Shown here one piece after another: positions 13,705-15,187 of a stretch of DNA of 36,852 bases. Both the position numbers and the translations under genes were made by a program. The notes beneath the pieces are model-generated. The model did no database searches, was not told the DNA's origin, and was given only the letters and a program-made list of their open reading frames with translations. Source of the stretch: a virus (taxonomy: Duplodnaviria; Heunggongvirae; Uroviricota; Caudoviricetes); IMG/VR virus record IMGVR_UViG_2537561875_000003, one strand, 5' to 3'. Within the stretch, counting starts at the first letter, position 1. Every line of letters begins with the position of its first letter.

Positions 13705-14022
13705 TTAAACCGCCAGGCTATCGCCTCGCACATCACAAATGATATGTGTCACGACGCCGGCGACAGTGACATCATCCAGAGCCTCGCCTTCAATCGCTTC
13801 GCCATCTTCGGTTATAAGCGATCGCCCCATCAGCTTTGCAAGCTCAGACCTGCCATCGTATAAAATAATGAGCTGGCTTCCCTGCTTGGGTTTAAGCCCA
13901 ATATCTACTACGACATAACCGCCATCCCTTTCGAAAACGCGGGTGTTAGGGCCGACATTGCAGATCGAGTTAACAGACAACCTTTGCTCGACGTAATCCG
14001 TCGCGGGTGAAGGGAATCCCAT
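13705..14022 (-). CDS. UmuD'/HumD-like protein (105 aa) lacking the catalytic Ser segment
   Basis: Starts MGFPSPATDYVEQR (UmuD' begins GFPSPAADYVEQR) and ends VAGVVTHII; no SGDSM-like motif; TGATG coupling with the upstream gene. Confidence 0.72.
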   Translation of the reverse strand: MGFPSPATDYVEQRLSVNSICNVGPNTRVFERDGGYVVVDIGLKPKQGSQLIILYDGRSELAKLMGRSLITEDGEAIEGEALDDVTVAGVVTHIICDVRGDSLAV

Positions 14023-14261
14023 CAGATGACCCTCCCCATCCCTGCCATCATCCACAGGCGGTTTTCGCTATGGTCCGGCGTCTTATCGACAAAATACGTT
14101 TGTTCCCGCGCGATCCAGGAATTCGCCTCCACCTCGGTAAAATGAATGCCGCGCCGGCGAAGCGCAGTAACGAAGTCGCGGGTGTGAAGGTATTGAAACC
14201 CCTTGGAACTGCGCAAAATGGACTCGCGGAAAGCCGCGGCGATGTCTGACTGTCGAAGCAT
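14022..14261 (-). CDS. 79-aa SOS-inducible hypothetical protein
   Basis: GGAGGG RBS then ATG 14261; first gene after the LexA box. Confidence 0.78.
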   Translation of the reverse strand: MLRQSDIAAAFRESILRSSKGFQYLHTRDFVTALRRRGIHFTEVEANSWIAREQTYFVDKTPDHSENRLWMMAGMGRVI

Positions 14262-14279
14262 GATCTGCCCTCCGATAAA

Positions 14280-14322
14280 TACTGTTTGCATATACAGTAT
14301 TTTTTATCAGAAATAGGATCAA
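14280..14322 (-). promoter_or_regulatory. LexA (SOS) box overlapping a sigma70 promoter
   Basis: taCTGTttgcatatACAGta (CTGT-N8-ACAG, 14282-14297); -35 TTGATC (14317-14322), 17-bp spacer, -10 TACTGT (14294-14299). Confidence 0.88.
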
Positions 14323-14366
14323 TAGAGGTTGCGGCTATCAATTTAAATGACAGCCGCAAGTCTCTA
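14323..14366 (-). terminator. Long hairpin closing the late operon, immediately upstream of the SOS promoter
   Basis: TAGAG/CTCTA, TTGCGGCT/AGCCGCAA and TCA/TGA stems; weak U tract. Confidence 0.5.
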
Positions 14367-14377
14367 CAATCACTGCA

Positions 14378-15187
14378 TTAACCCAAATCGTTAATGCCCC
14401 ACGCAGCGTTCAGATACGCACTGATGCTGTCGATAACAGATGCTACTTCGGCCTGCGTTAGCGCTGCTTCAAAAATCAGTTCCATACCCATGGTGATATC
14501 CGCTCCGGCCGGGTATGCAGCACTGGCATGATGCGATCCAATCCTGATGGTTCTGCCAGTGTATGCCGTCCTGTTAGTTAGCGTTCGCGACCCCTGCCAT
14601 GCAAGCGCCCCTCCCTGCCGCCCACCGATTCGGGCAATGTTGTTATCGCCGTCGATCAGTGACACAAAAGCTGCCCATTTGGTTACGTCATAGTTGGTCG
14701 TGAAGTTATTAATAAGATTGGTCGGCGTGGCATTATTATCCTCAACGAAAGCGCCATAGATCGTGTTAGGCGCAGTGGTCGTATACATAAATGCGAGGCC
14801 ATCACCACGATAAACAATCGGTGACCCTGAGTAATTGTAGTTACCCATCATGAAAGCCTGTTGCTGCTCAGTAGCTGCAGTTGGCTTTACTGGCTTACAG
14901 ATGACGATGTGTGTCTGGTTCCGACTGGACACCCTTCCCGTATCAAAACAGTTGCTGAAATTACAAACGGCGCCAAAGGTCGGGGAGATTGTCGGCGTTC
15001 CTACCATGGTCAGCGGGGTGGTACTATCCGCCAGATTCCTGATGCTCAGTGCAGCATTACCACCCTGAATATGCATCCCTTTCAGACCGGTAGTAACAGG
15101 TAAATCGGGCACCATGAAGTGCCCTTTTTTGGGATGGCTCCCCGGAATAACAATGTCGCCCAGTTTTGGAATATAAATTGTGCTCAT
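14378..15187 (-). CDS. Tail-spike-associated protein, beta-rich, possibly ConA/LamG-like lectin fold
   Basis: 269 aa directly after the SGNH spike; alternating beta-strand pattern and C-terminal IFEAALTQAEV..YL motif. The fold is inferred. Confidence 0.5.
   Translation of the reverse strand: MSTIYIPKLGDIVIPGSHPKKGHFMVPDLPVTTGLKGMHIQGGNAALSIRNLADSTTPLTMVGTPTISPTFGAVCNFSNCFDTGRVSSRNQTHIVICKPVKPTAATEQQQAFMMGNYNYSGSPIVYRGDGLAFMYTTTAPNTIYGAFVEDNNATPTNLINNFTTNYDVTKWAAFVSLIDGDNNIARIGGRQGGALAWQGSRTLTNRTAYTGRTIRIGSHHASAAYPAGADITMGMELIFEAALTQAEVASVIDSISAYLNAAWGINDLG

Follow-up and report, generated by a model that had tools for sequence, protein, structure and literature searches.

At the minus-strand locus analysed here, two small genes are arranged behind a promoter that carries a LexA (SOS) box. 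The whole stretch of DNA that was analysed, referred to as the window, is 36,852 nt long. On the minus strand, a -35 hexamer TTGATC (14317-14322), read from the sequence and, in most related loci, found at an unchanged distance from the box, is followed after a 17-nt spacer by a presumed -10, TACTGT (14294-14299). The latter forms the first six bases of the LexA box, TACTGTATATGCAAACAGTA in its minus-strand reading (14280-14299). Taking CTGT-N8-ACAG inside TACTGTATATATATACAGTA as the consensus, the box scores 17/20 and its core CTGT-N8-ACAG is perfect, which bears out the original prediction of a strong SOS box overlapping the -10. With up to one mismatch allowed, the pattern TACTGT-N8-ACAGTA was found once in the 36.8-kb window, compared with 0.01 occurrences expected from shuffles, and the complete 100.8-kb record holds two LexA boxes of this strength in total.

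Downstream of the promoter, a Shine-Dalgarno sequence GGAGGG (14268-14273, minus strand), also read from the sequence and conserved in related loci, precedes gene 1 (14022-14261, minus strand; ATG at 14261, stop at 14024-14022), which encodes the 79-aa protein p1. The Shine-Dalgarno sequence of gene 2, GGGGAGGG (14030-14037, minus strand), is located within the last codons of gene 1, and gene 2 itself (13705-14022, minus strand; ATG at 14022-14020, stop ending at 13705) encodes the 105-aa protein p2. The two genes meet at the junction TGATG with a 1-nt overlap and, by this layout, are translationally coupled, as had been proposed. The possibility that p1 and p2 are joined by a programmed frameshift or by read-through was rejected, since both the spacing and the frame of the junction differ among relatives (TGATG, TAATG, TGAAATG, TAACCATG).

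Between the stop codon of the neighbouring tail gene and the cassette promoter, a hairpin was found at 14322-14367 on the minus strand, with an RNA folding energy of -25.7 kcal/mol (z = -6.65, 200 shuffles). Its probable role is to shield the cassette from late transcription; no clear U-tract was seen at the hairpin, and no convincing terminator was found downstream of gene 2. The 3' arm of the hairpin holds the motif TTGATAG, and related loci show this motif again some 20 nt upstream of the -35.

The window is part of a provirus record of 100,807 bases, and the host prophage is Klebsiella-type and lambdoid-type. The cassette is the final gene block of the prophage, at its tail-fibre/att end. 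Its upstream neighbour is a tail gene (ORF 14378-15187, stop at 14378), the rest of the window is made up of tail and head genes, and the early region and integrase are found at about 49-61 kb of the record. The same location is seen in the related phages RothC, RCIP0114 and HK140, in which tail-fibre genes are followed by the cassette and then by attP/int. The earlier statement that no umuC lies nearby in the window was extended to the whole 100.8-kb record, in which no UmuC-type polymerase domain (PF00817) was detected; likewise, no umuC is annotated in cis in the phage and plasmid regions examined. UmuC homologues are encoded by the host, in all five of the cassette-bearing host genomes checked. 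The prophage CI repressor (locus L005, 16219-17052) combines an HTH_3 domain with a full Peptidase_S24 domain (E = 7e-29) and carries the Ala-Gly site as well as the GDSM and FKKL motifs. By these motifs, it is an ordinary RecA-cleavable repressor that should cleave itself on RecA*, and the cassette is therefore probably not the induction switch.

A second complete cassette was found in the same record, 48 kb away (G000, 62,629-63,232; L006, 7629-8232, minus strand), adjoining a second, P4-type integrase (L006, 6327-7547). It has the LexA box TACTGTATTTATATACAGTA (19/20) and the -35 hexamer TTGATC, and it encodes a 79-aa p1 paralogue (32% identical) and a short p2 of 106 aa with a GTG start (56% identical). 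One cell would accordingly carry two diverged copies of the cassette.

The encoded proteins

Judged from its sequence and modelled fold, p2 is a homologue of UmuD' that is born cleaved and catalytically dead. It matched phrog_3469, 'UmuD-like protein', with E = 2e-46, and phmmer returned the UmuD structures 8gmt (E = 6e-8) and 1umu (E = 3e-7). The nearest NCBIfam family was the HumD family NF051876 (51.1 bits, E = 1e-13; below the curated cut-off of 120), and a search of Pfam gave no match at E <= 1, which places p2 below the gathering score of PF00717 (Peptidase S24). The original prediction had depended on a UmuD-like fold, and such a fold was recovered: the AF2 model (pLDDT 79.7) adopts an S24 beta-barrel, for which Foldseek returned UmuD/UmuD' as the top matches (TM about 0.6), followed by the C-domains of LexA, 186 CI and lambda CI (probability 1.00, TM 0.5-0.64). 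The best fold match was UmuD bound to the RecA filament (8gmt).

The alignment with UmuD describes how the protein has been shortened. The N-terminus of p2 is M-GFPSPATDYVEQR, aligned with UmuD residues 25-37, and the protein begins at the counterpart of UmuD Gly25, in agreement with the earlier observation that it begins Met-Gly-Phe-Pro-Ser-Pro at the UmuD cleavage point. This arm, GFPSPATDYVEQR, differs from E. coli UmuD 25-37 at one position. Further along, the alignment contains a gap of 11-12 residues in which the GDS60M loop with Ser60 is absent, and Ala62 occupies the position of Lys97; the loss of the Ser-containing catalytic loop had thus been correctly recognised. Throughout the short family to which p2 belongs, Lys97 is replaced by Ala, Val or Gly and the catalytic Ser-Lys dyad is absent, while a conserved Lys/Arg is found one position after the Lys97 site, aligned with Lys98. 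The terminal beta-strand motif V-x-G-V-V is kept in p2. Across 22 short-family members, M1, G2, F3, S5, P6 and A7 are invariant, and the most invariant element is an acidic stretch, ITEDGEAIEGEAL, which has no counterpart in UmuD. The p2 family as a whole is acidic, with a mean net charge of -8. Taken at the sequence level, p2 clearly derives from umuD/humD and not from a repressor, and the invariant acidic motif, together with the armless relatives described below, suggests that the globular domain has a function lacking in UmuD.

The partner p1, described as uncharacterised in the original prediction, indeed belongs to no Pfam or NCBIfam family and matched phrog_3893, of unknown function (E = 2e-39). 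Searches of Pfam, NCBIfam, PADLOC and PDB sequences gave nothing meaningful, including no HTH family and no DinI family model. The p1 family is narrow, since only 71 clusters at 50% identity were found among 1.8 billion representatives. Its AF2 model (pLDDT 90.2) shows the topology H-b-H-H-b-b with a wing, and in a VIA scan of 48,161 chains the best 50 matches were all winged-helix domains, with Z of 5-6.2, scores in the range of common arrangements. Foldseek against the PDB gave nothing at E <= 0.001 (E >= 0.1), and against BFVD it gave a single match at E <= 0.001, an unnamed protein 49% identical to p1 and probably a member of the same family. Conserved basic positions are limited to R3 and R68, and the family is mildly basic, with a mean net charge of +1.6. 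Because conserved basic residues are so few, a protein-binding role is favoured over a DNA-binding one, and p1 is most likely an accessory of p2 rather than a DNA-binding regulator. The C-terminal G-R-V-x of p1 looks like the UmuC end LLRVK. This resemblance is probably coincidental: the codons concerned carry the Shine-Dalgarno sequence of p2, and one p1 subclass ends in NPNGG instead.

Among longer database proteins, no p1-p2 fusion was found; the only longer forms were over-called starts and fusions of p1 to an invertase C-terminus. In many records that lack p2, p1 residues 1-73 form an in-frame fusion with the C-terminal part of a serine DNA invertase, comprising its E-helix and HTH_7 domain (P0316, P0327 and P0079 in Klebsiella and Raoultella records; phage hits H16/H17). 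Such proteins are named 'recombinase family protein' or 'putative invertase' in databases and are probably recombination products formed beside the tail-fibre region.

Distribution, conservation and variants

The cassette is widely distributed among phages of Enterobacterales. By tblastn, 43 phage records contained p1 and 119 a p2-like protein; these are phages of Klebsiella, Escherichia, Enterobacter, Erwinia, Salmonella and Cronobacter, among them HK140, HK225, mEp390, N15, phiKO2 and P1. Of 30 genomic loci drawn from many genera of Enterobacterales, 23 have p1 immediately upstream of p2, and the start and stop codons of the paired genes overlap or are a few bases apart. Distant metagenomic relatives of p1 (33-40% identity) are likewise followed by a 107-aa p2. 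The first gene is preceded, at a distance of about 20 nt, by a LexA box scoring 15-19/20 in 11 of 12 loci and also in nearly all of 30 further genomic loci, which is consistent with the proposed control of the operon by LexA. The box is still present in relatives at 33-40% protein identity, and at loci that lack p1 it stands directly before p2. Both genes are under purifying selection, with dN/dS of 0.07-0.29 against close relatives (0.09-0.29 for p1 and 0.07-0.13 for p2).

Homologues of p1 were also found in 1,029 plasmids, 934 of them conjugative. On the IncX3 and IncFIB plasmids examined, the p1 homologue is paired with a HumD-like 'S24 family peptidase'. For instance, in the IncX3 plasmid NZ_MG252891.1 (L048, 39217-39815), the stretch bounded by ISKox3 and IS26, adjoining the blaNDM-5 region, encodes a p1 homologue and an 'S24 family peptidase' of 118 aa. 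The 118-aa protein is probably the 'umuD' of papers on IncX3.

The two genes also occur in other combinations. p2 is found without p1 in P1, in phiKO2 and at loci L020 and L029, and p1 accompanies a long, HumD-type p2 in HK140 and at locus L047. p1 occurs without p2 at locus L015 and alone on a Pantoea plasmid. At L015 (555-1481), the p1 homologue has its own LexA box (15/20) and is convergent with a gene of the SRAP (YedK-type) family, which is associated with DNA damage.

Variation within p2 is seen chiefly at the N-terminus. In about one-eighth of loci, p2 is armless or arm-degenerate and retains the acidic motif. Relatives without the GFPSPA arm (L037, L040, L042, L044 and L007/L008) start with MQ(Q)TLDSICGV and keep ITEDGEAIEGEAL. 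Among them, a LexA box was found at L042, L044 and L007/L008 and coupling to p1 at L042 and L007/L008; at L037 and L040 neither was found. Since armless forms persist with the acidic motif, the arm is not essential to the core function of the p2 family.

Candidate functions

A UmuD' equivalent carried by a phage is classically explained as being immediately available for lesion bypass on phage DNA (Weigle reactivation). For the present cassette, action on host Pol V is the most likely function, because the arm that contacts UmuC is almost unchanged. The pair is proposed to be an SOS-induced accessory cassette (moron), silenced by LexA, in which the p2 arm acts on host UmuC to set Pol V activity, and we give this reading an even chance of being correct. 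In the lysogen, host LexA bound to the box overlapping the -10 would keep the operon silent, and removal of LexA upon DNA damage would allow both coupled genes to be expressed together. As a streamlined descendant of the HumD/UmuD' lineage, p2 would be made in the 'cleaved' form, with no need for RecA-mediated processing and with its own protease site deleted. Its arm may then engage host UmuC in the manner of the UmuD' arm in Pol V, with p2 acting either as a homodimer or paired with host UmuD/UmuD', and p1 may serve as its protein-binding accessory. By this route, the phage could adjust how active Pol V is on damaged DNA in the early phase of induction. LexA control in vivo, UmuC as the target and an interaction between p1 and p2 are what we infer from the evidence above.

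The case for a UmuC contact is built on published work on Pol V. In an AlphaFold model of Pol V, one UmuD' arm lies beside the UmuC active site, and experiments cited with that model indicate that armless UmuD' dimerises but is dead for mutagenesis (PMC11791011). As p2 has no protease, self-cleavage cannot explain why its arm is nearly unchanged, and a contact with UmuC becomes the simplest explanation. The same model has the C-terminal carboxylate of UmuC held by UmuD' S36, T71, K73 and E69 (PMC11791011), renumbered here as UmuD S60, T95, K97 and E93. All four of these pocket residues are deleted or replaced in p2, and they are not conserved in the short family.

The four missing pocket residues, together with the armless relatives, keep a decoy or modulator role in play, and the armless relatives and the invariant acidic motif make it a serious rival. 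According to this possibility, which we regard as tentative and rather unlikely, p2 would act as a brake by occupying UmuC through the arm, host UmuD/UmuD' through heterodimers, or the groove of RecA* without forming an active Pol V, and would thereby damp mutagenesis or the co-protease activity of RecA*, with p1 as an adaptor. Such a role would account for a p2 that keeps the arm and lacks every modelled pocket residue for the UmuC C-terminus, and for armless variants that persist under LexA boxes when armless UmuD' is inactive in mutagenesis. In line with it are also the top fold match of p2, which is UmuD on the RecA filament, and the situation in HK140 and phiKO2, where one LexA site serves both the cassette and a divergent dinI-type gene for a RecA modulator. 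Against this, the annotation of P1 HumD, the only relative that has been tested, describes a positive role, the functional complementation of UmuD', and the pocket argument depends on a computational model. A bolder version, which we consider doubtful, holds that the cassette is not a Pol V helper but an SOS-timed decoy, in which the acidic ITEDGEAIEGEAL surface and the winged-helix partner would capture UmuC, UmuD/UmuD' or the RecA* filament. If that were true, error-prone synthesis or RecA* co-protease activity would be switched off or redirected during phage replication, and the cassette would represent a phage anti-mutagenesis or anti-SOS device made from a gutted UmuD'.

Other readings are considerably less probable. 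A winged-helix p1 coupled translationally to an S24-fold p2 that starts at the cleavage-site residue reproduces the domain order of LexA, and small partners of UmuD-type repressors exist by analogy, such as DdrR with UmuDAb. The pair might on these grounds be a two-piece regulator, with p1 binding DNA and p2 providing dimerisation, equivalent to a non-covalent, uncleavable LexA/CI-like factor made during SOS only. This is quite improbable in view of the p1 properties, namely two conserved basic positions with a near-neutral charge, no match by sequence to a Pfam HTH family or a solved structure, and fold scores in the common range; moreover, the two proteins are not found fused, p2 often occurs without p1, and its ancestry lies in umuD/humD and not in a repressor. 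A LexA-controlled antirepressor that wakes the prophage, comparable to Gifsy GfoA or 186 Tum, would fit a small LexA-controlled operon distant from the immunity region, and pairing between a dead S24-like domain and the S24 domain of CI is conceivable in principle. It is nevertheless highly unlikely, because the prophage CI, with its standard HTH_3 and Peptidase_S24 domains and motifs, is cleavable and needs no antirepressor, and because the cassette is carried by elements that do not integrate (the examined IncX3 and IncFIB plasmids, as well as phiKO2 and P1, where p1 is missing). Finally, the deleted catalytic loop, the IncX3 pair flanked and cut by insertion sequences, and the replacement of p2 by an invertase fragment in some Klebsiella lineages could be taken as signs of a decaying humD remnant without present function. 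That view is barely credible given the low dN/dS, the intact reading frames, and the motifs and LexA boxes conserved across genera.

Should the cassette tune host Pol V or the SOS response, as in the preferred reading of an accessory acting on UmuC, it would affect stress-induced mutagenesis, and hence adaptation, in clinically important Enterobacterales, as well as phage survival after DNA damage. Many prophages of Klebsiella, Enterobacter and E. coli carry it, and p1 homologues occur on about 1,000 plasmids; those examined include IncFIB plasmids and the IncX3 plasmid that bears blaNDM-5. In addition, p2 offers a natural dissection of UmuD', in which the arm is retained and the protease pocket is gone, and p1 represents an unstudied family of winged-helix partners. 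Both proteins are within reach of ordinary mutagenesis and interaction assays in E. coli K-12.

Comparison with known systems

E. coli UmuD', the accessory subunit of Pol V (1UMU, 1AY9, 8GMT), is the best match of p2 in both sequence and fold, and the arms of the two proteins are nearly identical. In contrast to UmuD', p2 is not made by cleavage, lacks the Ser-Lys dyad and the residues modelled to bind the UmuC C-terminus, and is not encoded in a umuC operon. With respect to gene order, phiKO2 genes 22/23 and HK140 genes 26-28 occupy the same site, between the tail-fibre genes and either attP or the partition genes, and likewise have a LexA-controlled promoter. The LexA site shared by dinI and the umuD-like gene is annotated in phiKO2 (L003), and the box in HK140 (L004) was found by scan. 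The divergent dinI-type gene of these phages is missing from the window cassette, which has the tail gene and the hairpin upstream instead.

A UmuD-derived protein with a small dedicated partner in the DNA-damage response is also known from Acinetobacter, in the form of UmuDAb and its corepressor DdrR. This is an analogy only; unlike p2, UmuDAb is a repressor of full length that can be cleaved and has an HTH of its own. Gifsy-1 STM14_3218-3220 was considered for comparison as well and set aside as irrelevant. In the literature searched, neither experimental work on the short p2 form or on p1 nor a transcriptome paper covering the cassette was found. The novelty claimed in the original prediction was overstated: the short, dyad-less p2 and the winged-helix p1 are already recognised as the PHROG families phrog_3469 and phrog_3893, and dozens of sequenced phages carry the cassette.

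The closest known systems include P1 HumD and its kind (N15 gp26, phiKO2 gp23, HK140 gp28 and HK639; NF051876, phrog_811), which had been named as the precedent. Like p2, they are phage-borne UmuD homologues associated with a LexA box, which is annotated for P1 humD and phiKO2 gene 23. Proteins of both kinds start at the residue of the UmuD cleavage site, carry the N-terminal arm and a C-terminal extension beyond UmuD, and have no umuC nearby. McLenigan and colleagues reportedly found in 1999 that P1 HumD complements UmuD'. The two kinds differ in size, with 105 aa for p2 compared with 127-129 aa for the HumD kind (129 for P1 HumD), as had been pointed out. Two segments, one of them the 11-residue Ser60 loop, are missing from p2, which carries Ala at the Lys97 position; when the alignment is anchored on the conserved G-x-L-L-x-V-D segment, P1 HumD keeps both Ser60 and Lys97, and the phiKO2 and HK140 proteins have Thr at position 60. 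The invariant acidic motif ITEDGEAIEGEAL further distinguishes p2 from HumD. Moreover, p2 is usually preceded by p1, which is absent from P1, N15 and phiKO2 and present in HK140 and the IncX3 plasmids. With these differences, the cassette is of a known kind, that of the LexA-controlled, born-cleaved phage UmuD' represented by P1 HumD, N15 gp26 and phiKO2 gp23.
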